The position numbers were made by a program, and so were the translations under genes. From the NCBI GenBank assembly GCA_016870135.1, contig VGCF01000001.1, positions 9,033 to 73,032 of the forward strand: a stretch of 64,000 nucleotides of DNA, read 5' to 3'. The notes under the pieces are model-generated. The model was not told the origin of the DNA. It ran no database searches and saw nothing but the letters and a program-made list of their open reading frames with translations. The DNA comes from Alphaproteobacteria bacterium. Lineage in GTDB: Bacteria; Pseudomonadota; Alphaproteobacteria; Holosporales; Holosporaceae. Shown here piece by piece: positions 7,648 to 42,268 of this stretch (position 1 is its first letter; the number at the start of each line of letters is the position of its first letter).

Positions 7648-9078
7648 TTACACAGACTGTTCCAGGGCAGACATCCGTTGTTCCAAGGCGGGAATCAGCG
7701 CCGACAGTTTCATGCTGTTTGCCCCCTTGATTAAAATGGTATCTCCGGGCAGGAGGGTTTTCACCACATGGGGAATGATGTCACAGGCATGCTCAGCATA
7801 ACCCAAAAAATGGGGAATTTCTGTTAACAATGGGGCAAATTCCTGGCCACACAACCAAACACCGTCTGCCTTGCACGCCTGAATGAAGGGGACTAAATCC
7901 CGATGACAGGCATAACTGTGCTGGCCCAATTCTCGCATTTGACCTAACAAAACATAACGTTTTCCATCGGATGGGTGGACGAGCGGTTCTGTAGATGTCA
8001 AAAAGGTTTGCAATGCCGCTTGCATAGAGGCCGGTGCCGCATTATACGAATCATCGATCACCTTTATTCCGCCAACGATGCGCACGTTTCCCCTGCCATC
8101 ACAAGCGCTGATGCTTCTCATGTCTTGCATGACTTTTTCCATATCCGCCCCCAGTGCAAAGGCACCCGCCACAATGGCCAAACTGTTATACAGAGTGTGA
8201 TATCCAGGCAATGACCAATCATAAGCCCAGGGGGTTCCGTTGATGGTGATATGGATGCGCCGTTGCCCCATCAGACCATCTTCGGTGGATTGCCACTGGA
8301 TGTTGGATTCAGGGTGTTCACCAAACGTGATCCATTGTGTGACGTGACGTGCCATCTGGCCATGGCGCAACAAGGCCTCATAATGGGGGCTGTCTCTGGG
8401 AATGATGCCAATCAGTGGGGCGGGGGCCGAAAAAATTTCCGATTTGGCCAACACAATATCATCCAGAGTATCAAAAAACTCTCCGTGTTGATAAGATACT
8501 TGGGTAATCAGGGCGATGTGAGGACGAATGCTGGCAACCAGTTGGGTGATTTCCCCGCTGTGATTCATGCCGACTTCGAAAATACCAAACCGCGCCTCTT
8601 TAGGTAATCGCGCCAGAGACAACGGTACGCCAAGATGGTTGTTTAAACTGTTGCGTGATGCGCTGGTCAAGCCTTGATTGGATAAAACATGGGCCAATCC
8701 TTCTTTGACGCTGGTTTTTCCCACGCTGCCCGTCAGTGCCAAAACGGTGCCGTCAAATCGAGATCTGGCCGCAACCGCCAGTTCTGTTAAGGCACGATGC
8801 GTATCCGTCACCACCACTGTGGGGTAATTTGGATCCGTAACCAGGGACCCTAAATCATCCACGATCACGGCACAGGCCCCCAAAGCCCAAGCGTCCTGTA
8901 TAAAATCGTGTCCGTTCATTTTTGGTCCACGTAATGCGATGAATAGATCGCCTGGCTGTAAGGTGCGCGTATCAATGGATATGCCCGTGGCGTTCCAATG
9001 GGCCGGGCCTTCGCCCTTGATGATGGTTATCACATCTGATCCTGTCCATAACCCATGGGGTAAAGTATTGAGCATCAA
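7648..9078 (-). CDS. murF: UDP-N-acetylmuramoyl-tripeptide--D-alanyl-D-alanine ligase
   Basis: 476 aa. Mur ligase P-loop (LALTGSVGKTSVKE), then FEVGMNHSGEI and a DDSYNAAPASM C-terminal domain typical of MurF. Confidence 0.92.
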   Translation of the reverse strand: MMLNTLPHGLWTGSDVITIIKGEGPAHWNATGISIDTRTLQPGDLFIALRGPKMNGHDFIQDAWALGACAVIVDDLGSLVTDPNYPTVVVTDTHRALTELAVAARSRFDGTVLALTGSVGKTSVKEGLAHVLSNQGLTSASRNSLNNHLGVPLSLARLPKEARFGIFEVGMNHSGEITQLVASIRPHIALITQVSYQHGEFFDTLDDIVLAKSEIFSAPAPLIGIIPRDSPHYEALLRHGQMARHVTQWITFGEHPESNIQWQSTEDGLMGQRRIHITINGTPWAYDWSLPGYHTLYNSLAIVAGAFALGADMEKVMQDMRSISACDGRGNVRIVGGIKVIDDSYNAAPASMQAALQTFLTSTEPLVHPSDGKRYVLLGQMRELGQHSYACHRDLVPFIQACKADGVWLCGQEFAPLLTEIPHFLGYAEHACDIIPHVVKTLLPGDTILIKGANSMKLSALIPALEQRMSALEQSV

Positions 9079-9217
9079 GCCGTATCAATGCGGGGATTTA
9101 ATGGAATCATACCAAAATTTACACCAGATAAAAAGCAGCGTTAAAATCAATTTAAAGAGAAATATCCGGTGATGATCTGTATGAAAAAGCAGGTTAAAGC
9201 GTGTCAGTGGATATCGG

Positions 9218-10015
9218 TCAATCCATCAGGGCAAGCACAGGCATTTTGTGGAATAAATCCAGGGTGTTGCGTACCGTGGCGTTAGCAATGTCCGTCACAG
9301 AACATCCACGCAATGCAGCGATGGCTTTTGCCGTTTCCATCATATAGGACGGCTCATTGTCTTTTCCCCGATACGGATGTGGTGCCAACCACGGGGCATC
9401 GGTTTCCACCAACAAGGCTGACAGGGGCAATTGCGTGGCCAGTTGATGCACATCCGGCGCATTTTTAAAGGTCACAATGCCAGAAAGACCGATTTTCCAC
9501 CCCCAATCGATGGCTTCTTTGGCGCAATCCACCGAGCCTGTAAAGCAATGCAAAACCCCCTTAACCGTTTTGCCACCCGATTGCGCCCGCACATCACGCA
9601 TGATGGACAAAAACGCCTGATCCGTGTTTCGCGTGTGCACCACCAACGGCAATTGTGTTTCGATGGCCACACGGATGTGATGACGAAAACAACGTTCTTG
9701 CTGGTCCATGGGGGGGGATGATTCCTGGGCATCCAGTCCTGTTTCACCAATGGCCACAATTTTAGGATGCTGGATGGCTGTTGTTAACCAATGGTCTATG
9801 GCATGGTCAGGCAACGTGTGAATTTCCAGAGGATGCAAACCAACCGTACCATATACACCGTCATATTGCTTGACAATGGGCAGCAAAGCCTGAAACGTCA
9901 TCGGAGAAGTGGAAATGCTGATCCATTGATGAATACCGCGGGACTTGGATCGATCCAGCACGCTGTCAATGTCTGAAAAGCGATCTAAATGGCAATGGCT
10001 GTCGATCAAATACAT
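9218..10015 (-). CDS. tatD: TatD family metal-dependent hydrolase
   Basis: N-terminal IDSHCHLD, then AIGETGLD, HTR, HCF and ETDAPW motifs of the TatD amidohydrolase fold. Start placed at the Met of MYLIDSHCH. Confidence 0.88.
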   Translation of the reverse strand: MYLIDSHCHLDRFSDIDSVLDRSKSRGIHQWISISTSPMTFQALLPIVKQYDGVYGTVGLHPLEIHTLPDHAIDHWLTTAIQHPKIVAIGETGLDAQESSPPMDQQERCFRHHIRVAIETQLPLVVHTRNTDQAFLSIMRDVRAQSGGKTVKGVLHCFTGSVDCAKEAIDWGWKIGLSGIVTFKNAPDVHQLATQLPLSALLVETDAPWLAPHPYRGKDNEPSYMMETAKAIAALRGCSVTDIANATVRNTLDLFHKMPVLALMD

Positions 10016-13753: not shown

Positions 13754-14473
13754 ATGAAACATTGTTTATTTGGTGGTGCTTTTAACGCAGCCCATGATCA
13801 TCACCACGATCATCACCACGATCATCACCACGGTCACCACCACGGTCACCACAAAGCCATCAATCTGTTCATGGAAATTGTTGGTCCAAAATGGCGTCAG
13901 GTAGAACGTGTCATGGGTCAATTGCATTGCCCAGAACTCAGCCACACCCAATTGCAAGTCATTCGCGCAGAGGTTGCCTTATTGTGCTCTAACAAGCACC
14001 ACAAGCACAGCGTCAAGCACGCCTTGCACCACTTTTATCATGAATTTGGCGCCCACCATGTGGCCATACACAATCCTTATGTGCAGTTCGGTCCAATCGT
14101 TGCGCGAAAAATCATGCAATTAAAATTGGAATTGTGCCGCCTGAAAACAAAACTGATTCACAAAACCGATTCGATGCGTCAAATTGCATTGTTCAAGGAA
14201 TCCTTCTTGTTGGCCTATGATCGCTTGGGCAGCAAAATGAGTGCATTGCATTCTGCTGATTTGACCGTCAATGAACTAGAGCGCATCAAGCATGAAGTCG
14301 AAAAAGTATCCGAAGTCATTTGCCACAGCAAAGATGCATTTTACAGTTGCGTCGGTGGATTTGGAAAGCATATCGACCCCAGCGTCATTGCCATGGCCGA
14401 AGGGCTAAAGATGCAGTGGCATTCCTTAAAAGAAATGTTGCATCGTAAAGAAAAAGAAATTGCGCGCGCCTAA
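13754..14473 (+). CDS. histidine-rich hypothetical protein
   Basis: 239-aa ORF with GGAG 8 nt upstream of the ATG. The N-terminus is HDHHHDHHHDHHHGHHHGHH. The rest is helical with further HH/HxH and Cys pairs. No signal peptide and no family I recognise. Confidence 0.7.
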   Translation: MKHCLFGGAFNAAHDHHHDHHHDHHHGHHHGHHKAINLFMEIVGPKWRQVERVMGQLHCPELSHTQLQVIRAEVALLCSNKHHKHSVKHALHHFYHEFGAHHVAIHNPYVQFGPIVARKIMQLKLELCRLKTKLIHKTDSMRQIALFKESFLLAYDRLGSKMSALHSADLTVNELERIKHEVEKVSEVICHSKDAFYSCVGGFGKHIDPSVIAMAEGLKMQWHSLKEMLHRKEKEIARA

Positions 14474-14503
14474 AAAATTGCGTGCATCGTTGCTCTTGCT
14501 GTA

Positions 14504-14523
14504 CTGGGGTCTTTTGACCCCAG
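14504..14523 (+). terminator. stem-loop downstream of the His-rich gene (possible terminator)
   Basis: CTGGGGTC-TTTT-GACCCCAG gives a perfect 8-bp stem, 31 nt after the stop. No U-tract follows, so intrinsic-terminator function is uncertain. The equivalent position in repeat unit 2 is degenerate. Confidence 0.3.
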
Positions 14524-14570
14524 GTGGGCAAAATTGTATCAATCATCATCACGTATAGAGGAAGTTCCAT

Positions 14571-14765
14571 ATGTTACTCGATCAGGAGCAAGAAGAAAAA
14601 AAGCTTTCCAACCCACAAAAAGACACCCATATTGATATCAAAAAACTGAACAAGCTGATTGGCCTCACCAGAATTTTTGTATTATTGCGCTGCATTAGTT
14701 TTTTATTTGTTGCTATTGCTTTAATTATAATAATTATTGATAAAATGATTCACAGATTTCTTTAA
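14571..14765 (+). CDS. small tail-anchored membrane protein, cassette ORF A copy 1
   Basis: 64 aa. SD-like AGAGGAA lies 7-8 nt upstream. Charged N-terminus MLLDQEQEEKKLSNPQKDTHIDIKKLNKLIGLTRI, then one hydrophobic segment. Paralog at 15133. Confidence 0.55.
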   Translation: MLLDQEQEEKKLSNPQKDTHIDIKKLNKLIGLTRIFVLLRCISFLFVAIALIIIIIDKMIHRFL

Positions 14766-14837
14766 CTACAATAATTATTGATAAAATGATTCACAGATTT
14801 TAATATAAAAGAAAAAAGCGCAACGATGTCAAGCGTG

Positions 14838-14936
14838 ATGGTCCCTGTTCCCGATTTGACAAGACCACAGATAAAGACCGTGGCCAAGAATCCCAAAAAC
14901 CAAGCGATCACGCAGAACATCCAGCAATACAGGTGA
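14838..14936 (+). CDS. small basic hydrophilic peptide, cassette ORF C copy 1 (an in-frame ATG at 14826 is also possible)
   Basis: Encodes MVPVPDLTRPQIKTVAKNPKNQAITQNIQQYR. Between the two copies, 3 of the 4 nucleotide differences are synonymous in this frame. No clear SD. Confidence 0.4.
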   Translation: MVPVPDLTRPQIKTVAKNPKNQAITQNIQQYR

Positions 14937-14941
14937 CGCGC

Positions 14942-15079
14942 ATGATATGCACACTGATACTGACGCTGTTTAAATATTATCTAGTTTTTTTAGTTGTTTC
15001 TATTGTTTTGATTATTTTTTCTTTTGCCGATGAAATAATTATCGATAAAATGTTCCCGTTTTGTACTGATGTCTTTTGA
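14942..15079 (+). CDS. small hydrophobic peptide, cassette ORF B copy 1
   Basis: 45 aa: MICTLILTLFKYYLVFLVVSIVLIIFSFADEIIIDKMFPFCTDVF. The ATG lies 5 nt after the ORF C stop, and AGGTGA (containing that stop) serves as an SD. Confidence 0.45.
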   Translation: MICTLILTLFKYYLVFLVVSIVLIIFSFADEIIIDKMFPFCTDVF

Positions 15080-15132
15080 CCCTAGGCGGGCAAAATTGCA
15101 TCAACCATCATCACGCATAGAGGAAATCCCAC

Positions 15133-15333
15133 ATGTTACTCGATCAGGAGCAAGAAGAAAAAAAGCTTTCCAACCCACAAAAAGACACCCATATTGATAT
15201 CAAAAAACTGAACATGCTGATTGGCCTCACCAGAATTTTGCACGTATTGTGCGTTATCATTATTTTAATTTTATTACTCATTATTTTGATTTCCTGGATA
15301 GCAACAATATTATTCTATCTTCACGCCCATTGA
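15133..15333 (+). CDS. small tail-anchored membrane protein, cassette ORF A copy 2
   Basis: 66 aa. The first 107 nt differ from copy 1 at one position (K28M). Same AGAGGAA SD. The hydrophobic tail has diverged. Confidence 0.55.
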   Translation: MLLDQEQEEKKLSNPQKDTHIDIKKLNMLIGLTRILHVLCVIIILILLLIILISWIATILFYLHAH

Positions 15334-15560
15334 AACCATGCCATCACCCCTCACGCTTTCTGACTACACAAATGCCCCTTGGCAGTTACCTATTCCCAGT
15401 CTTTACAACCATTAAAGATGATGGATTCATTCGCTAAACTTTGGATCAAATTTTGGTTCAAATGCGCCAGAGTCACCTAATCCTCCATGGCACGCTTGTA
15501 ATAAAATGGTCTATGATATTGGGATATACATTGTTAATGAGCTTGCGTACCGTATCCTTT
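15310..15560 (-). repeat. inverted copy of the rnhB 3' end plus its downstream spacer (partner at 41417-41706)
   Basis: The reverse complement of 15310-15560 aligns with 41417-41706. I count about 20 mismatches and three indels (15, 3 and 21 nt) by manual alignment. Confidence 0.9.
15477..15560 (-). pseudogene. rnhB 3'-terminal gene fragment (non-functional relic)
   Basis: Reads KGYGTQAH*QCISQYHRPFYYKRAMED*. The intact RNase HII tail is KGYGTQAHQQCISQYGLSQHHRPFYCKRAMGE*. The fragment has an in-frame TAA, a 15-nt deletion and nothing upstream of the KGYGT motif. Confidence 0.85.
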
Positions 15561-15570
15561 AGGGTGTAAT

Positions 15571-15597
15571 AAGGATGATAAGGATGATAAGGATGAT
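15571..15597 (+). repeat. 9-bp tandem repeat (AAGGATGAT)x3
   Basis: aaggatgataaggatgataaggatgat sits directly at the junction of the rnhB-derived insert and ends 0 nt before the ATG at 15598. Confidence 0.9.
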
Positions 15598-15723
15598 ATG
15601 AAAGAAGAAAGGCACAATGAGCGATGGCCCCCTGTTCCCGATTTGACAAGACCACAGATAAAGACCGTGGCCAAGAACCCCAAAAACCAGGCGATCACAC
15701 AGAACATCCAGCACTACAGGTGA
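15598..15723 (+). CDS. small basic hydrophilic peptide, cassette ORF C copy 2
   Basis: Encodes MKEERHNERWPPVPDLTRPQIKTVAKNPKNQAITQNIQHYR. AAGGA of the 9-mer repeat lies just upstream. Conserved with 14838-14936, mostly through synonymous changes. Confidence 0.45.
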   Translation: MKEERHNERWPPVPDLTRPQIKTVAKNPKNQAITQNIQHYR

Positions 15724-15728
15724 CGCGC

Positions 15729-15833
15729 ATGATATGCAGACTGATAATGACGCTGTTTAAATATTATTTAATTTTTTTATTTTTTACGATTGTTGCAGTT
15801 GTTGTATTGTTTTTTATCATTTCTCGCTGTTAA
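15729..15833 (+). CDS. small hydrophobic peptide, cassette ORF B copy 2
   Basis: 34 aa: MICRLIMTLFKYYLIFLFFTIVAVVVLFFIISRC. Same AGGTGA-N5-ATG arrangement as copy 1. It is the 3' part of the 69-aa track ORF 15624-15833. Confidence 0.45.
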   Translation: MICRLIMTLFKYYLIFLFFTIVAVVVLFFIISRC

Positions 15834-16022
15834 TTTCACATCAATAGGTAAATGCAATGGATGATTTGTGATTTGCACCATGATGATGGTCTAAACGATC
15901 TGAACATCCAAGTCATCAACCTTTTCCATCACAGCGTAATTCAGCTATGATAAGTATCATAGGGGGCTGGTTGGGCCGCTGAGGTTTGCAAACCCTTTGT
16001 TCAATCATGACAATATAGGATT

Positions 16023-16808
16023 ATGGCTAAAAAAAAGAAAGCAACGGGTAAACGATCTAAAAAATCGTCCTGGTATCCGAAAACTGTTGGTTTTTTAGGC
16101 CTATTTGGCCTTGTTTTGGCGGCATATTGTTATTTCAGTCCTCAATCCAGTTCTATTCCCACGATACAGGGCAGAGATTACCCAAAACGCACACGTGGCC
16201 TTCCTGTAAAACACACCACGTATGCCGTGTATGACCGTTTGGCAGGACAATCAAAAAGCGATGCCACACGCTTGTTACCGCCAGATGAAGTTCCCGATTG
16301 GAATCCTATGGAATCGGAAGAAAAGCCAGATCTGACCCCTGTACCTCAAAGCATTAGCACCTCTGTATCTAAAACCAGTAACGCCTCTGCCTCTGAAAAA
16401 CGTCTTGATACCAATGCGGAAAAACCCCAAACGATACCAACGGATCATAAAGCAACCACAAGGCCAACGCCCGCTTTGAAACCAGCGGGTAAGGCCCAGC
16501 CCCCGGCAGCCAATAAAAAGAACGGGGGTAAGAACGCAGGCAAGCATGATTCAACCAAAAGGATCAAAGCCACAGCATCGGGAAAACTTGCAGGAACTAG
16601 CCTGCGTTTGCAAATTGGATCCATTCAATCAGAGGTCCAAAAAGCAGAAAAAATGATTCAAAATATACGCAAAAAAGGGAAAATCCCACCCCATATGCGT
16701 CCCATGATACAAAAAGCCACCATCAAGGGAAAAACCGTATATCGCGTGATTTTGGTTGGCCATTGTTCGGAAAAAGCTCTAAAGGAATATCAACGGCATC
16801 TGGGATAA
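16023..16808 (+). CDS. SPOR domain-containing membrane-anchored protein
   Basis: 261 aa. Lys-rich N-terminus plus one TM (VGFLGLFGLVLAAYCYF), a Pro/Ser/Thr-rich linker, and a C-terminal SPOR-like fold (LRLQIGSIQSEVQKAEKMIQNIRKKG ... KGKTVYRVILVGHCSEKALKEYQ). Confidence 0.75.
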   Translation: MAKKKKATGKRSKKSSWYPKTVGFLGLFGLVLAAYCYFSPQSSSIPTIQGRDYPKRTRGLPVKHTTYAVYDRLAGQSKSDATRLLPPDEVPDWNPMESEEKPDLTPVPQSISTSVSKTSNASASEKRLDTNAEKPQTIPTDHKATTRPTPALKPAGKAQPPAANKKNGGKNAGKHDSTKRIKATASGKLAGTSLRLQIGSIQSEVQKAEKMIQNIRKKGKIPPHMRPMIQKATIKGKTVYRVILVGHCSEKALKEYQRHLG

Positions 16809-39683: not shown

Positions 39684-40778
39684 ATGGGGGATATCCCCCA
39701 GAATCCCCCCTGGAAAACGCGCGTCGGTTTCGTTGACAGGGGTTTTTTACACATTTTATTTTATGAACTTGTTTTAATTGAGATATTATTAATGTTCTGT
39801 TTTGACAATCATTTGGTCATTGCTTGTTTTGTAATTCTTGCTGCAGTAAATACAGCCTCTGTTTTTTACCCCAGATTGTGGGCTAAAAATACGTTGGTAC
39901 GAGGTGGTTGGGTGTCAGACCGTTATATTGTGTGCAATCTGGTGTGCTGGTTGGGGGTGTGCTCTGGCCTGATGAATGGGTATGGAGCCATGATTTTGGG
40001 TCTATTTGTTGGGTGTTGTGCGGTTTTTTACGGGTCAAAGACCTTTAGGCGTGGATTTTTACACCATAACACGGTCAAAAACAGGGGTATATCCTTTCTG
40101 ACAGCCGTGGCTTTTTTCTGTATAGTGACCATTTTTTTCGGCGTTTTACATCATCAATTGCCAGGATTTTTCAATGTTTGTGCGTTGTCATATTACAAAG
40201 TTTCAGAACATTTTGTGCCTTATACGATGTGGTTTAATTTTGATCGCACGTTATTAGCCATGGTGCTGTGTATGTATGGGGTGCTTCGTACACAACACGC
40301 TGAATCTTTTCACAGAAACCCAGCCACTGTGGTATGGATTCTTGCAAGCTTTGCAGCCACTATAACGGGGGTGGCGTTGTGTGCTCTCAGAATTGGGTAC
40401 ATCGAATGGGATATCAAGTGGCCAAGCATTCAGGTTTTATGGTCCATAAATAATATCTTTTTTGTTTGTTTGGTTGAAGAAATTTGGTTCCGTGGGTTTT
40501 TGCAAGGTCAAATAAAGCAGGGTTTTACGCGTGTGCTCAGCCCAAACGTCATGGGTTGCAGGCCTCATATTCTGGCTGCAGCTGTGATTTTTGGCATAGA
40601 TCACGCCATCAAAGGTGGCCCGGTTTATGGGGCCTTGGCCGTTCTGGTCGGTTTGTTTTACGGGATTGTTTACGATCAAACAGGGCGTATCCAGTATGCT
40701 TGGGCCGATCACTTTTTGTTTAATCTGTTGCACCTGATCTTGTTTACCTATCCCGCATCCACAGGTATTTTATCATGA
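39684..40778 (+). CDS. CPBP family intramembrane glutamic endopeptidase (CAAX protease/Abi-like)
   Basis: 364 aa, polytopic. Motif 1 is EEIWFRGFLQ, motif 2 is FGIDHAIKG, motif 3 is HFLFNLLH. The start codon is uncertain. The stop overlaps the rnhB start (ATGA). Confidence 0.8.
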   Translation: MGDIPQNPPWKTRVGFVDRGFLHILFYELVLIEILLMFCFDNHLVIACFVILAAVNTASVFYPRLWAKNTLVRGGWVSDRYIVCNLVCWLGVCSGLMNGYGAMILGLFVGCCAVFYGSKTFRRGFLHHNTVKNRGISFLTAVAFFCIVTIFFGVLHHQLPGFFNVCALSYYKVSEHFVPYTMWFNFDRTLLAMVLCMYGVLRTQHAESFHRNPATVVWILASFAATITGVALCALRIGYIEWDIKWPSIQVLWSINNIFFVCLVEEIWFRGFLQGQIKQGFTRVLSPNVMGCRPHILAAAVIFGIDHAIKGGPVYGALAVLVGLFYGIVYDQTGRIQYAWADHFLFNLLHLILFTYPASTGILS

Positions 40779-41515
40779 TAATGGCCAACAACACATTATT
40801 GCATTTTCATCATGAAGACAGCTTGGTCAGGTCTATTGACGGCGTGAACCCATATATTGTGGGGGTGGATGAGGTTGGGTATGGTGCGTGGGCTGGATCA
40901 ATTGTGGTGGCAGCCGTTTGGATTAACCGCCAGATGATATCGGATGATTTCTTAAAAGAACTGAATGATTCCAAAAAATTAAGCCCTAAAAAGCGCAACG
41001 ATCTATGTCAGTCGTTTATTGAGCATCCCCTGTGGGGATCATATGCCCTTGCCCATGTTCCTGTAAGAGATATAATCCAAGGATTGGTGTTAAAACATAC
41101 GCTGCAAGCCATGGTTCAGGCGGTTTACTGTCTGGATGGTTATTTATCTGCGGCATTGCCCAGGCCGTTGGGGCTGGATGCTGGATCTTGGTCTGAAAGA
41201 GAGAAGGGCGCTTCTGCTTATTTTTTAAATACCATTACAGGGGTGGTTGTGGATGGTCAGCACAGCTTGCCTGTACACTGGGCGCAAAAATCATGTCCTG
41301 GTGCCGATGGTCAAAGCTATAGCGTGGCATTGGCGTCCATTGTGGCAAAAGTGGCAAGAGACGATAACATGAGAATATTGCACGAGGAAAACCCTCAGTA
41401 TTCTTGGGATAAAAATAAAGGATACGGTACGCAAGCTCATCAACAATGTATATCCCAGTATGGGTTATCCCAACATCATAGACCATTTTATTGTAAGCGT
41501 GCCATGGGGGAGTAG
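40775..41515 (+). CDS. rnhB: ribonuclease HII
   Basis: 246 aa. Contains GVDEVGYGAWAGSIVVAAV, DSKKLS, ASIVAKVARD and KGYGT..H motifs. Has an internal ~35-aa insertion relative to typical length. Confidence 0.9.
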   Translation: MIMANNTLLHFHHEDSLVRSIDGVNPYIVGVDEVGYGAWAGSIVVAAVWINRQMISDDFLKELNDSKKLSPKKRNDLCQSFIEHPLWGSYALAHVPVRDIIQGLVLKHTLQAMVQAVYCLDGYLSAALPRPLGLDAGSWSEREKGASAYFLNTITGVVVDGQHSLPVHWAQKSCPGADGQSYSVALASIVAKVARDDNMRILHEENPQYSWDKNKGYGTQAHQQCISQYGLSQHHRPFYCKRAMGE

Positions 41516-41706
41516 GTGACTCTGGCGCATTGGAACCAAAATTTGATATAAAGCTTAACGAATGAATCCATCATCATGTTTAATGGTTGTAAAGACAGGG
41601 GGTAGGTAACTGCCAAGGGGAATTTGTGTAGTCATAGAGCGTGAGGGGTGATGGCATAGTGGTATGGGGTGATGGCGTGGTTTCAATGGGCGTGAAGATA
41701 GAATAA
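41417..41706 (+). repeat. partner of the inverted repeat at 15310-15560 (rnhB 3' end plus 190 bp downstream)
   Basis: See the alignment under 15310-15560. This copy also has an internal duplication of GGGGTGATGGC(N10). Confidence 0.9.
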
Positions 41707-42268
41707 GACTTTTGAGTGATTTAGATTTTTTAGTGTTTCAAATCCATATCACGTTTTTGATTCGTGCAATTCGTGCGGATTTTAATGTAATACCAGCCAT
41801 TGTAATGCGTACCAGTTTGATACCCAGATCTATAAAGCGTTTAAGGTCGGAATTCAATCAGTCATACACAGCCAATCCATCGTCAGAAAACGAGTCGCTG
41901 TCGATATACACCACCAAATATTTTCCATAATATCAATTATGCGATCGACAGATGGCACCATGGGGGATAACTTACCTAAGGTTTTACTCTCGTTTTACCC
42001 GTGAGTTCCCTAAGGGTCGTCTCTGGGTTTATGGGTGTTGCGTCTTTGATCTTCAAAATCTTGGGTCATGGATTTTGTTTTGTCCTGTTTTATTCACAAA
42101 TGCCACTGATGCGCTTAGACAGATTGCGGATCGGGCGTGCCATCTGGATCGGTTGCTGATCTTATTTTTTGATCCGATTGTCTGACCTAGAACGATCCAG
42201 ACCCATCATACCTGTTGATATCAGACATTGCGCGATGATCTGGTCTGAACTGGATATCGCCTTTGTCT

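Follow-up and report, generated by a model that had tools for sequence, protein, structure and literature searches.

The locus described here lies in a 64,000-nucleotide stretch of DNA (hereafter the window), whose source, a MAG, was placed among the Holosporales near 'Ca. Finniella' by a scan of a genome collection with UvrB that also supplied syntenic loci. Its genes follow a fixed order in these organisms, comprising an FMN reductase gene, a gene for a His-rich protein, a hairpin, one or more small genes, a gene for a SPOR-domain protein, and uvrB. The neighbours, which also include an Hsp70-family protein, are housekeeping genes. In the window, the small-gene interval contains two repeated blocks that are detected by self-comparison with blastn (E=1e-74 and 1e-67). 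The first block carries the 5' part of a gene that we call A (Table 1), and its match continues to about 14708 and 15270 in the two copies. The second block (14803-15007 and 15596-15794, 88% identical, with a core match of 14843-15007 and 15630-15794) carries the sequence previously divided into ORFs C and B.

A preliminary description of this DNA, made from the letters alone, had proposed a unit of ~562 bp that occurs twice in tandem. The duplication is real, but the units are not uniform. Copies of the A block are spaced by 562 nt and copies of the C/B block by 787 nt, because unit 2 harbours an insert of ~250 bp. The six small ORFs of that description are present, namely A1 and A2 (Table 1), C1 (14826-14936), C2 (15598-15723), B1 (14942-15079) and B2 (15729-15833). 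The shorter repeat that it reported at the end of A1 corresponds to a 41-nt tandem duplication with a 19-nt echo at 15034-15052, and the 3' end of A in the related loci L004 and L005 carries a parallel tandem duplication of ~45 nt. An independent contig, L001, terminates within the A repeat, as is expected if the repeat is real. Searches of the window by tblastn and blastn for further copies of the peptides or of the unit yielded none other than the insert derived from rnhB.

Table 1. Positions, in window coordinates, of the features of the duplicated array and of the source of its insert.
Feature	Position	Strand	Remarks
Strong hairpin	14496..14531	+	Core CTGGGGTC-TTTT-GACCCCAG at 14504-14523; directly past the stop codon of the His-rich gene; left edge of unit 1
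Repeat block 1, copy 1	14500..14680	+	Hairpin, Shine-Dalgarno motif and A codons 1-36; 94% identical to copy 2
Gene A1	14571..14765	+	64 aa; FJX00_00120 (hypothetical protein); charged N-terminus, C-terminal TM helix
41-nt tandem duplication	14715..14796	+	Copies 93% identical; first copy encodes the A1 C-terminus (..IIIDKMIHRFL*)
D1, degenerate copy of gene D	14804..15079	+	Includes C1 and B1; long frame open in alignment with relatives, ancestral ATG lost
Repeat block 1, copy 2	15062..15242	+	Hairpin degraded
Gene A2	15133..15333	+	66 aa; FJX00_00125; last ~8 codons and stop codon within the rnhB fragment
Inserted pseudo-copy of rnhB 3' region	15310..15561	-	Last ~32 rnhB codons and downstream DNA; reverse of 41425-41712, 80% identical
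AAGGATGAT x3 micro-repeat	15571..15597	+	Abuts the ancestral ATG of D2 (15598) on its upstream side; read from the sequence
Gene D2	15624..15833	+	69 aa; P0007; the annotated long ORF; supported by alignment of relatives and codon-position bias versus L097
Source of the insert	about 41425..41712 (match 41416-41714)	+	rnhB 3' end and downstream intergenic DNA; rnhB is 40775-41515

The hairpin at the left edge of unit 1 has a computed RNA folding energy of -23.5 kcal/mol (z=-6.2) and is kept in the related loci L002, L003, L004, L007, L009, L010 and L097. No T-run follows it, and therefore it is not a canonical intrinsic terminator. The second copy (15066-15085) is degraded, with a folding energy of -7.2 kcal/mol (z=-0.4). 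The insert of unit 2 is translated on the reverse strand as PKGYGTQAH*QCISQYHRPFYYKRAMED*, compared with KGYGTQAHQQCISQYGLSQHHRPFYCKRAMGE in rnhB, the gene identified by NCBIfam as encoding RNase HII.

Gene A was described correctly at the outset. Its AGAGGAA Shine-Dalgarno motif is located 8 nt before the ATG, its product is charged at the N-terminus and carries a TM helix at the C-terminus, and comparison with relatives establishes it as a real gene of 61-66 aa. The best 19-aa Kyte-Doolittle windows score 3.0 for A1 (residues 38-56) and 3.7 for A2 (residues 35-53). Homologues of A1 include P0001, which is identical (100%), as well as P0003 and P0004 (each 54% identity, E=9e-6 and 2e-4). The two window copies differ at only 1 of 107 nt in the 5' part of the ORF, versus 10 of the 68 nt directly before the ATG (Fisher p=4e-4). 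They exhibit no synonymous difference over 36 codons at a flank divergence of 15% (p~0.02). Values of dN/dS for A among close relatives range from 0.5 to 1.9.

The preliminary description assigned three small genes to each unit, in which a hidden-frame ORF C (32-41 aa) was thought to be under selection and translationally coupled to a TM peptide encoded by ORF B (34-45 aa), such that the 69-aa ORF annotated over the same DNA would be a chimera. The observations behind this model are accurate. Both units have an open C frame, and its copies differ at four positions (14891, 14903, 14912 and 14927). Read in the C frame, three of these differences are synonymous, whereas in the frame of the 69-aa ORF (hereafter the long frame) each of the four changes the amino acid. 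Moreover, the TGA of C is embedded in AGGTGA, 5 nt ahead of the ATG of B. However, the four differences give an ambiguous signal because the same positions are also first positions of long-frame codons and wobble positions of in-phase antisense ORFs. In addition, the first-position bias extends into the TM part, past the end of the C frame.

Comparisons with relatives show that ORFs C and B both belong to a single long-frame gene, D (69-101 aa); C is the +1 frame over the hydrophilic part of D, and B is its C-terminal TM segment from an internal Met. A long-frame gene of 71-101 aa is present in L002, L003, L005, L006, L097 and L008, and in L010, L088 and L008_2 the long frame is fused in-frame to an A-type N-terminus. 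The frame of the 69-aa ORF is the ancestral coding frame, and the proposal of a chimera is not supported. Decisive evidence comes only from the deep comparison with L097, wherein differences in the D core are distributed over long-frame codon positions 1/2/3 as 18/11/42 and 18/11/40 (chi-square p=1.4e-5 and 4.7e-5), with dN at ~0.29-0.30 and synonymous sites saturated. This third-position bias covers the entire C region. Within its first 14 codons, for example, a manual count for L003 versus L097 gives 1/2/7, and BLOSUM scores favour the long frame in every comparison with L097. Across 10 copies of the core (EHPAVHVAR-MxCKL..FLF), the minimum numbers of changes by codon position are 18/11/25, and the ratio of amino-acid to codon states is 0.60 in the long frame versus 0.84 and 0.85 in the other two. 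Close relatives yield an equivocal 7/0/5 changes on long-frame codon positions and dN/dS values for D of 0.26-0.72; the close-relative dN/dS estimates rest on 4-30 substitutions and are ambiguous or carry little information.

Retention of the two proposed ORFs among relatives points in the same direction. In L002, L003, L004, L006 and L008_1, the C frame is open and begins at the shared ATG. However, L005 and L097 are missing this start codon, and the hybrid genes (L010, L088 and L008_2) contain no C frame. The C-frame stop lies at different places among relatives because of substitutions that leave the long-frame amino acid unchanged. Likewise, the start codon of B is ATA in L008_2, and AGGTGA occurs only in the window copies, at a place where relatives read ACACGTGGCCCGTATG. 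L005 has received from A a tract that is 5 nt shorter, and it retains the long frame but not frame C. Thus, frame selection judged from four substitutions proved misleading, and comparison reveals one ordinary small gene in the annotated frame.

Both window copies of D are altered at their 5' ends. In D1, the ATG has become ATA and 1 nt has been deleted, such that the earliest in-frame start is a GTG at 14933; its 3' end has been substituted at the duplication junction and has 19 nt in common with the 41-nt repeat. In D2, a 7-nt deletion placed the ancestral start at 15598 into frame C, and a new ATG at 15624 is in use. The D gene of L004, like D1, is without a usable long-frame start codon. 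AlphaFold2 models D2 as a helix over residues 29-68 (pLDDT 89-97), with residues 1-28 at pLDDT <55, which suggests a disordered hydrophilic N-terminus followed by one long helix with the TM segment at its end.

Two other coding arrangements were considered. The wobble positions of two in-phase ORFs on the minus strand (14762-14920 and 15534-15707) match the four differences, but these antisense ORFs were rejected, as such ORFs arise automatically opposite a hydrophilic sense frame that is poor in Leu and Ser; they are also closed in the TM part and not kept in L097. A programmed frameshift from C into the long frame was also considered, and inspection of the sequence revealed no slippery heptamer of the form X XXY YYZ.

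Judged by sequence comparison, A, D and the A/D hybrids are one orphan family of 61-101 aa in which A and D are old paralogues. The hybrids, which join the Shine-Dalgarno motif and N-terminus of A in-frame to the C-terminus of D, can be aligned with the A and D types across their full length. Searches return E values of 1e-28 to 1e-47 with a D query and 1e-27 to 1e-42 with a hybrid query, and a joint A/D profile finds all types plus P0011 (E=1.8e-5). Contrary to the initial statement that there were none to recognise, A and the long ORF have homologues in related metagenome contigs and MAGs. In total, the family comprises only six clusters among 1.84 billion representatives, all from one genus-level clade, and it is absent from the next relative, L011. 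A scan of the genome collection with the A alignment gave no matches, and a metagenome scan with the D alignment gave one additional locus only, L007. In related contigs, the interval between the genes for the His-rich and SPOR-domain proteins is likewise occupied, but by a single copy. Gene structure, coding frame, family membership and synteny are direct results of these comparisons.

Hybrid genes exhibit dN/dS values of 0.73-1.39 and a dS of 0.18, versus a dS of 0.39-0.50 in flanking genes; dN/dS in the neighbouring genes is 0.02-0.3, with the exception of a value of 0.65 in one SPOR comparison. Divergence between the paralogues (dS >0.8, up to saturation) exceeds that between species, and the family therefore predates the sampled radiation. 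A de novo origin is not demonstrated by these sequences.

The predicted architecture of the family consists of a charged, disordered N-terminal segment of ~30-45 residues, a juxtamembrane helix, and a single hydrophobic C-terminal TM segment. Kyte-Doolittle maxima (19-aa windows) of 2.6-3.7 fall near the C-terminus across the family, C-terminal tails are short in all but L009 (32 residues), and the 15 residues preceding the TM segment carry a charge of 0 to +4. D-type forms with two TM segments occur in L097 and L008_1. Because there is more positive charge N-terminal of the TM segment than in the tail, the N-terminus is most likely cytoplasmic, with few residues outside. Searches of Pfam, NCBIfam, PADLOC, PHROGs and PDB sequences produced sub-threshold noise only and no known-family match, and Rfam gave no relevant match in the region, both at gathering thresholds and at E<=1.

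Several characterised classes bear some resemblance to A and D. Like DUF883 proteins (ElaB/YqjD/YgaM), A and D are without a signal peptide, have a hydrophilic N-terminal part that is predicted to be cytoplasmic, and carry a single TM helix within the last ~25 residues followed by a very short tail (exceptions are L097, L008_1 and L009). However, they have no Pfam DUF883 match even at E<=1, are shorter (61-80 aa versus ~100 aa), have an N-terminus predicted to be disordered rather than a helical ribosome-binding domain, and are limited to one genus-level clade. The resemblance to small regulatory membrane proteins such as MgrB, AcrZ, KdpF, MgtS and MntS extends to size, the single TM helix and lineage restriction, and such proteins are usually missed or labelled hypothetical. 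This would most likely be the functional class of A and D, despite the lack of homology and an unusually long charged N-terminal segment. As in orphan or young genes, dN/dS is high in A and D, start codons are unstable and hybrids form mosaics of the two types, but the paralogues have diverged further than the species.

We consider it probable that the region reflects a lineage-specific tandem duplication, now decayed in part, of an A-D array that encodes small tail-anchored membrane proteins in a Finniella-like endosymbiont of protists. As to membrane topology, expression and biological role, which we infer, our best guess is that A and D are tail-anchored inner-membrane proteins, and their likeliest role is the putative modulation of another membrane or stress function. 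Across the loci compared, the site downstream of the His-rich gene is a fixed and recombination-prone location for the array in Finniella-like Holosporales. According to the sequence comparisons, the most likely history began with tandem duplication of the segment from the hairpin through A to D, followed by insertion, between A2 and D2, of a copy of the rnhB 3' region in reverse orientation. Slippage and small duplications within the T-rich tracts that code for TM segments would come next, and then the 5' lesions of both D copies, in which D1 lost its start and D2 acquired a new ATG after its 7-nt deletion. Finally, the 5' part of A may have been homogenised or otherwise constrained at the nucleotide level, as suggested by the lack of synonymous differences between its copies despite diverged flanks. 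Three findings run against the array interpretation: purifying selection at the amino-acid level is nearly absent in recent comparisons, D1 and the D gene of L004 are without a usable long-frame start codon, and most differences between D1 and D2 fall on first positions of long-frame codons.

These results document a previously uncharacterised family of small, putatively tail-anchored membrane proteins that is found in Finniella-like Holosporales and restricted to that clade. They also illustrate how such genes evolve, namely by duplication in tandem, formation of A/D hybrids, conversion over short tracts, slippage where T-rich DNA codes for TM segments, and turnover of start codons. Their value for annotating small proteins and for studying orphan-gene evolution in endosymbionts is modest, and they open no long-standing question.

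An unlikely alternative is that A and D are membrane toxins of type I character, repressed by antisense RNA and serving in stabilisation or host addiction. Most type I toxins have an architecture opposite to a long polar N-terminus followed by a C-terminal TM segment. A and D resemble Hok, Ldr, TisB, Ibs, ShoB, Fst and Zor as small, hydrophobic, single-TM products of tandem intergenic copies that vary in number among strains, but their TM segment lies at the extreme C-terminus behind 30-45 polar residues in proteins of 61-101 aa. In favour of this alternative, conservation at synonymous sites is unusually high in places, both between A1 and A2 and among the hybrids with their low dS. One report (PMC8163844) attributes many putative toxin-antitoxin systems to a related Holosporales endosymbiont. 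Nevertheless, type I toxin families gave no match in Pfam or NCBIfam at E<=1, in PADLOC or in PHROGs, nor did Rfam, and the locus, which lies on the chromosome, is syntenic and inherited vertically. A promoter and terminator scan of the region found no enrichment over shuffles (12 promoter-like sites versus 8.0 +/- 3.3) and no antisense element. The holin-like peptides that had also been suggested have no PHROG or Pfam holin match and no lysis-cassette or prophage context.

It is similarly improbable that the region is non-functional repeat DNA in decay, in which the ORFs would be remnants of pseudogenes or would have arisen by chance in T-rich sequence. Recent dN/dS near 1 fits such decay, as do the start losses, nonsense codon or frameshifts in D1, D2, L004 and L005, the pseudo-rnhB insert, the degraded second hairpin, and a C-terminus of A2 that is taken from the insert. 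However, every lineage of the clade has at least one intact family ORF whose Shine-Dalgarno motif and ATG are conserved, at flank dS of 0.4-0.7. Indels within genes keep the frame (30, 15, 3, 3 and 3 nt), those that break it are confined to the first ~12 codons of D, and new ATGs rescue D2 and L005. The strong codon-position signature of the deep comparisons is also at odds with decay, which probably holds for D1 alone.

A further reading, which we regard as doubtful, is that the site after the His-rich gene is a hot spot for the birth and shuffling of taxonomically restricted, tail-anchored micro-proteins, whose modules would be recombined and duplicated and would diversify by positive selection in endosymbionts of protists. 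Such modules would comprise the N-terminus of type A, the hydrophilic segment of type D and a choice of TM tails. D1 and D2 differ at 12 positions, 10 of which are first positions of long-frame codons and thus change the amino acid while preserving its class. This excess would not be expected under simple purifying selection on D; it fits the hot-spot reading, as does a dN at or above the neutral rate of the neighbours. Bacterial tail anchors are able to insert into eukaryotic organelle membranes (PMC5525287), and a role of A and D at the host interface is conceivable. The tail-anchored micropeptides of the preliminary description are close to the array interpretation that we favour.

The original arrangement of a selected ORF C coupled to ORF B is very unlikely and, as a conserved arrangement, largely refuted by the deep comparisons and the losses among relatives described above. 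In its favour, six of the nine lineage-specific changes in the hydrophilic part of D1 and L004, where the long-frame start is broken, fall at third positions of frame C. In a weaker variant of the hot-spot reading, strains with such a broken start (D1 and L004) may use frame C together with internal initiation at B.

In the repeat region two paralogous small genes, A and D, have been duplicated in tandem; the duplication is strain-specific, partly degenerate and broken by a pseudo-rnhB fragment (table). The preliminary description was largely borne out in what it observed and mostly not in what it made of it. Self-blastn matches the copies of repeat block 1 at 94% identity over 178 nt (E=1e-74, spacing 562 nt) and those of block 2 at 88% over 206 columns (E=1e-67, spacing 787 nt). 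The spacings differ because the second unit carries the insert. Recounting reproduced the reported differences between copies (10 of the 68 nt before A, one of the first 107 nt of A, four in the 'C' region) and the short repeats, and G+C drops from about 47% to 32-39% across the region. An independently assembled contig (L001, SRR7985617) is 100% identical to 14452-14600 and stops inside the A repeat, the pattern expected if an assembler had broken at a genuine repeat. A (AAGGATGAT)x3 micro-repeat (15571-15597) lies immediately 5' of the ancestral ATG of D2, and the corresponding place in relatives holds another short duplication, atgagagaagaa x2.

Features of the repeat region and its surroundings (window coordinates)
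Feature	Position	Remark
His-rich protein gene, 239 aa	13754-14473	left neighbour of repeat region
Repeat block 1	14500-14708; 15062-15270	
A1	14571-14765	unit 1
41-nt tandem repeat	14715-14796	
D1	14804-15079	unit 1
Proposed ORF C (two copies)	14826-14936; 15598-15723	hydrophilic
Repeat block 2	14843-15007; 15630-15794	
Proposed ORF B (two copies)	14942-15079; 15729-15833	TM
19-nt echo of short repeat	15034-15052	
A2	15133-15333	unit 2
Pseudo-copy of rnhB 3' end	about 15310-15561	between A2 and D2, reverse orientation; 80% identity to 41416-41714
D2	15624-15833	unit 2; 69-aa ORF, long frame
D2/SPOR spacer	15834-16022	
SPOR-domain protein gene	16023-16808	right neighbour of repeat region
uvrB	beyond SPOR gene	opposite strand
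rnhB (RNase HII)	40775-41515	source of insert

The insert comprises the last ~32 codons of rnhB and about 200 nt of the DNA downstream (source segment 41425-41712), its minus strand translates as PKGYGTQAH*QCISQYHRPFYYKRAMED*, and it is not present in any related locus fetched. A 28-nt stretch of it (15367-15394) is an inverted match, 79% complementary, to conserved sequence just downstream of D2 (15843-15870), a resemblance that could be due to chance or to a shared motif.

A1 and A2 are annotated as hypothetical proteins FJX00_00120 and FJX00_00125 of an 'Alphaproteobacteria bacterium' MAG, and the UvrB of the window is 94-95% identical to those of Holosporales MAGs, one named 'Candidatus Finniella inopinata'. 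Finniella live as endosymbionts in the cytoplasm of ciliates and cercozoan amoeboflagellates, and their genomes measure about 1.8 Mb at 44% G+C (PMC11909080). All relatives fetched share the order FMN reductase, His-rich protein, hairpin, small gene(s), SPOR protein and uvrB, and lineages differ in small-gene content. The close relatives (L002-L007, flank dS about 0.07-0.19) carry one A of 61 aa, then 30 nt, then one D of 71-80 aa. Loci L010 and L088 have a single 77/78-aa hybrid gene, with an A-like Shine-Dalgarno motif, start and N-terminus (MSPDQEKEEKRGTIDASGPVKRSNTEKD) joined in-frame to a D-like C-terminal half (KEHPAVHVA(Q/R)MVCKLVLT..). Locus L008 has a D-type gene with an additional N-terminal TM segment plus one hybrid gene, L009 only an A-type gene (94 aa), and L097 only a two-TM D-type gene (101 aa); L011, whose UvrB is 80% identical, has the His-rich gene and no small gene at the locus. 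All types can be aligned as one family, and its profile matches only 6 clusters among 1.84 billion representatives, every one traced being at this locus. Between hairpin and hybrid gene, L010 (rc 149-265 within 8858-9685) and L089 (2836-2952) have an extra 38-aa ORF, MVFLLLLALIVSCSALIAVNVIIKKNGHAPDVMGDDLC, with a lipobox-like IVSC motif and similarity to the N-terminal TM segment of the two-TM D-type genes of L097 and L008; judged on this similarity, it may be what is left of a D-type gene.

The small genes are an orphan family of predicted tail-anchored-type membrane proteins. Every member has a hydrophobic 19-residue Kyte-Doolittle window (2.6-3.7) near its C-terminus, followed by 1-13 residues (32 in L009), and the net charge of the 15 residues before the window is 0 to +4, being positive in 6/8 full-length members scored. 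An AlphaFold2 model of D2 made with the family alignment has residues 1-28 disordered (pLDDT below 55) and one confident helix at residues 29-68 (pLDDT 89-97). We favour, with reasonable confidence, the reading that A and D encode predicted small N-in tail-anchored inner-membrane proteins, probably co-transcribed with the His-rich gene or lying just downstream of it. A putative type I toxin-like role for these proteins is improbable; the family has no significant match in Pfam, NCBIfam, PADLOC, PHROGs, PDB sequences or Rfam.

Plain decay of the region is likely for D1 and unlikely for the region as a whole. In D1 the ancestral ATG is now ATA, 1 nt is deleted and the 3' end was replaced at the duplication junction, making it probably a pseudogene, judging from these lesions, unless translation starts at an internal Met. 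In D2, a 7-nt deletion moves the ancestral start (MKEERHNE) into the frame of the proposed ORF C (frame C), and the frame of the 69-aa ORF (long frame) begins anew at ATG 15624. The D gene of L004 has TAA at codon 4 (contig coverage only 3x), and that of L005 has a 5-nt shift near the start. These four independent lesions all fall in the first ~12 codons of D, which suggests that this N-terminal extension is dispensable. A1 and A2 are both intact and lack, in frame, the same 30 nt relative to other strains; this deletion is therefore older than the duplication or was propagated by gene conversion. Indels accompany the divergence of their TM parts, the tail of A1 deriving from the 41-nt repeat and that of A2 from the rnhB insert. 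In L004 (3800-3880) and L005 (180-260) the 3' end of A carries an independent tandem duplication of ~45 nt, parallel to that of A1; the T-rich TM-coding tails appear slippage-prone.

The conserved hairpin that follows the His-rich gene folds strongly (-23.5 kcal/mol, z=-6.2) and its duplicate has decayed (-7.2 kcal/mol, z=-0.4), which accounts for much of the divergence upstream of A. The first 36 codons of A have 0 synonymous differences between copies against 15% flank divergence (p~0.02), which points to gene conversion or nucleotide-level constraint. In recent comparisons the small genes have dN/dS of 0.26-1.9, with dN (0.09-0.25) equal to or above the dS of neighbouring genes, whose dN/dS is 0.02-0.30 (0.65 in a single SPOR comparison). 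Deep comparisons show clear purifying selection. Across flank dS of 0.4-0.7 the ORFs, Shine-Dalgarno motif and hydrophobic tails are kept, and indels inside the small genes are in-frame (30, 15, 3, 3 and 3 nt). Relative to the flanks, synonymous divergence is higher for D-type paralogues and lower for hybrid genes, which suggests paralogue sorting and recombination at the site.

Several lines of evidence show that D in relatives is read in the long frame, through the 'C' region and past the ATG of B. Over the core EHPAVHVAR-MxCKL..FLF of 10 copies, minimum changes are 18/11/25 at long-frame codon positions 1/2/3, and the nine codons 5' of the B ATG give 4/2/8. In the D core, differences from L097 are 18/11/42 for the window (p=1.4e-5) and 18/11/40 for L003 (p=4.7e-5), with dN of 0.29-0.30 and saturated synonymous sites. 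The first 14 codons of the 'C' region split 1/2/7 against L097 by our own count, with conservative replacements (D/E, S/T). The amino-acid/codon state ratio over the core of the 10 copies is 0.60 in the long frame vs 0.84 and 0.85 in the other two, and BLOSUM scores in comparisons with L097 (56-60 vs 29-35) likewise favour the long frame. Furthermore, GPVHHSNTEKD of A and GPCSRFDKTTEKD of D are DNA-level homologues in this frame. Frame C lacks a start codon in L097, is nonexistent in hybrid genes, and is broken in L005 by a 23-nt tract identical to A in place of 28 nt of D, the long frame there being preserved via a new ATG. Its stop moves 8 nt between copies via GTG/GTA changes, silent in the long frame, and the AGGTGA motif occurs in the window only. 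The three-ORF cassette of the preliminary description, with a separate ORF C, a coupled ORF B and a chimeric 69-aa ORF, is very improbable given the missing frame C starts of L005 and L097, the ATA (Ile) at the supposed start of B in one L008 gene (L008_2), and the long-frame third-position bias.

The four differences that had suggested selection on frame C lie at its third positions; the same sites are first codon positions in the long frame and again third positions in the in-phase antisense frame. An in-phase antisense ORF was considered and rejected: the absence of Leu codons TTA/CTA and Ser codon TCA from the sense segment is all that keeps this frame open, and the ORF is not conserved in L097. 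The phase bias extends into the TM part, beyond the end of frame C, with 10 of the 12 D1/D2 differences at long-frame first positions (p~5e-4 for the excess over third positions). First-position changes in TM codons (NTN) exchange Leu, Ile, Val, Phe and Met, and the pattern therefore looks like class-preserving amino-acid change; the excess would be compatible with diversification between paralogues.

The His-rich gene, always directly upstream of the small genes, is conserved (dN/dS 0.02-0.16). Its product, possibly metal-binding, has no Pfam or NCBIfam match, and its N-terminus, HDHHHDHHHDHHHGHHHGHH, is encoded by a 12-nt tandem repeat (13792-13851). The D2/SPOR spacer is conserved across the clade, with an invariant TTCAGnTATGAT motif. 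It contains a 32-aa Cys/His-rich ORF (MQWMICDLHHDDGLNDLNIQVINLFHHSVIQL, 15852-15950), which two 12-nt indels have not closed in L002, L008 and L010 and which lacks a start codon in L097, as well as a promoter-like site, TTTCCA-17-TATGAT, at 15923-15951; the spacer could be a 5' leader, a promoter or another micro-ORF.
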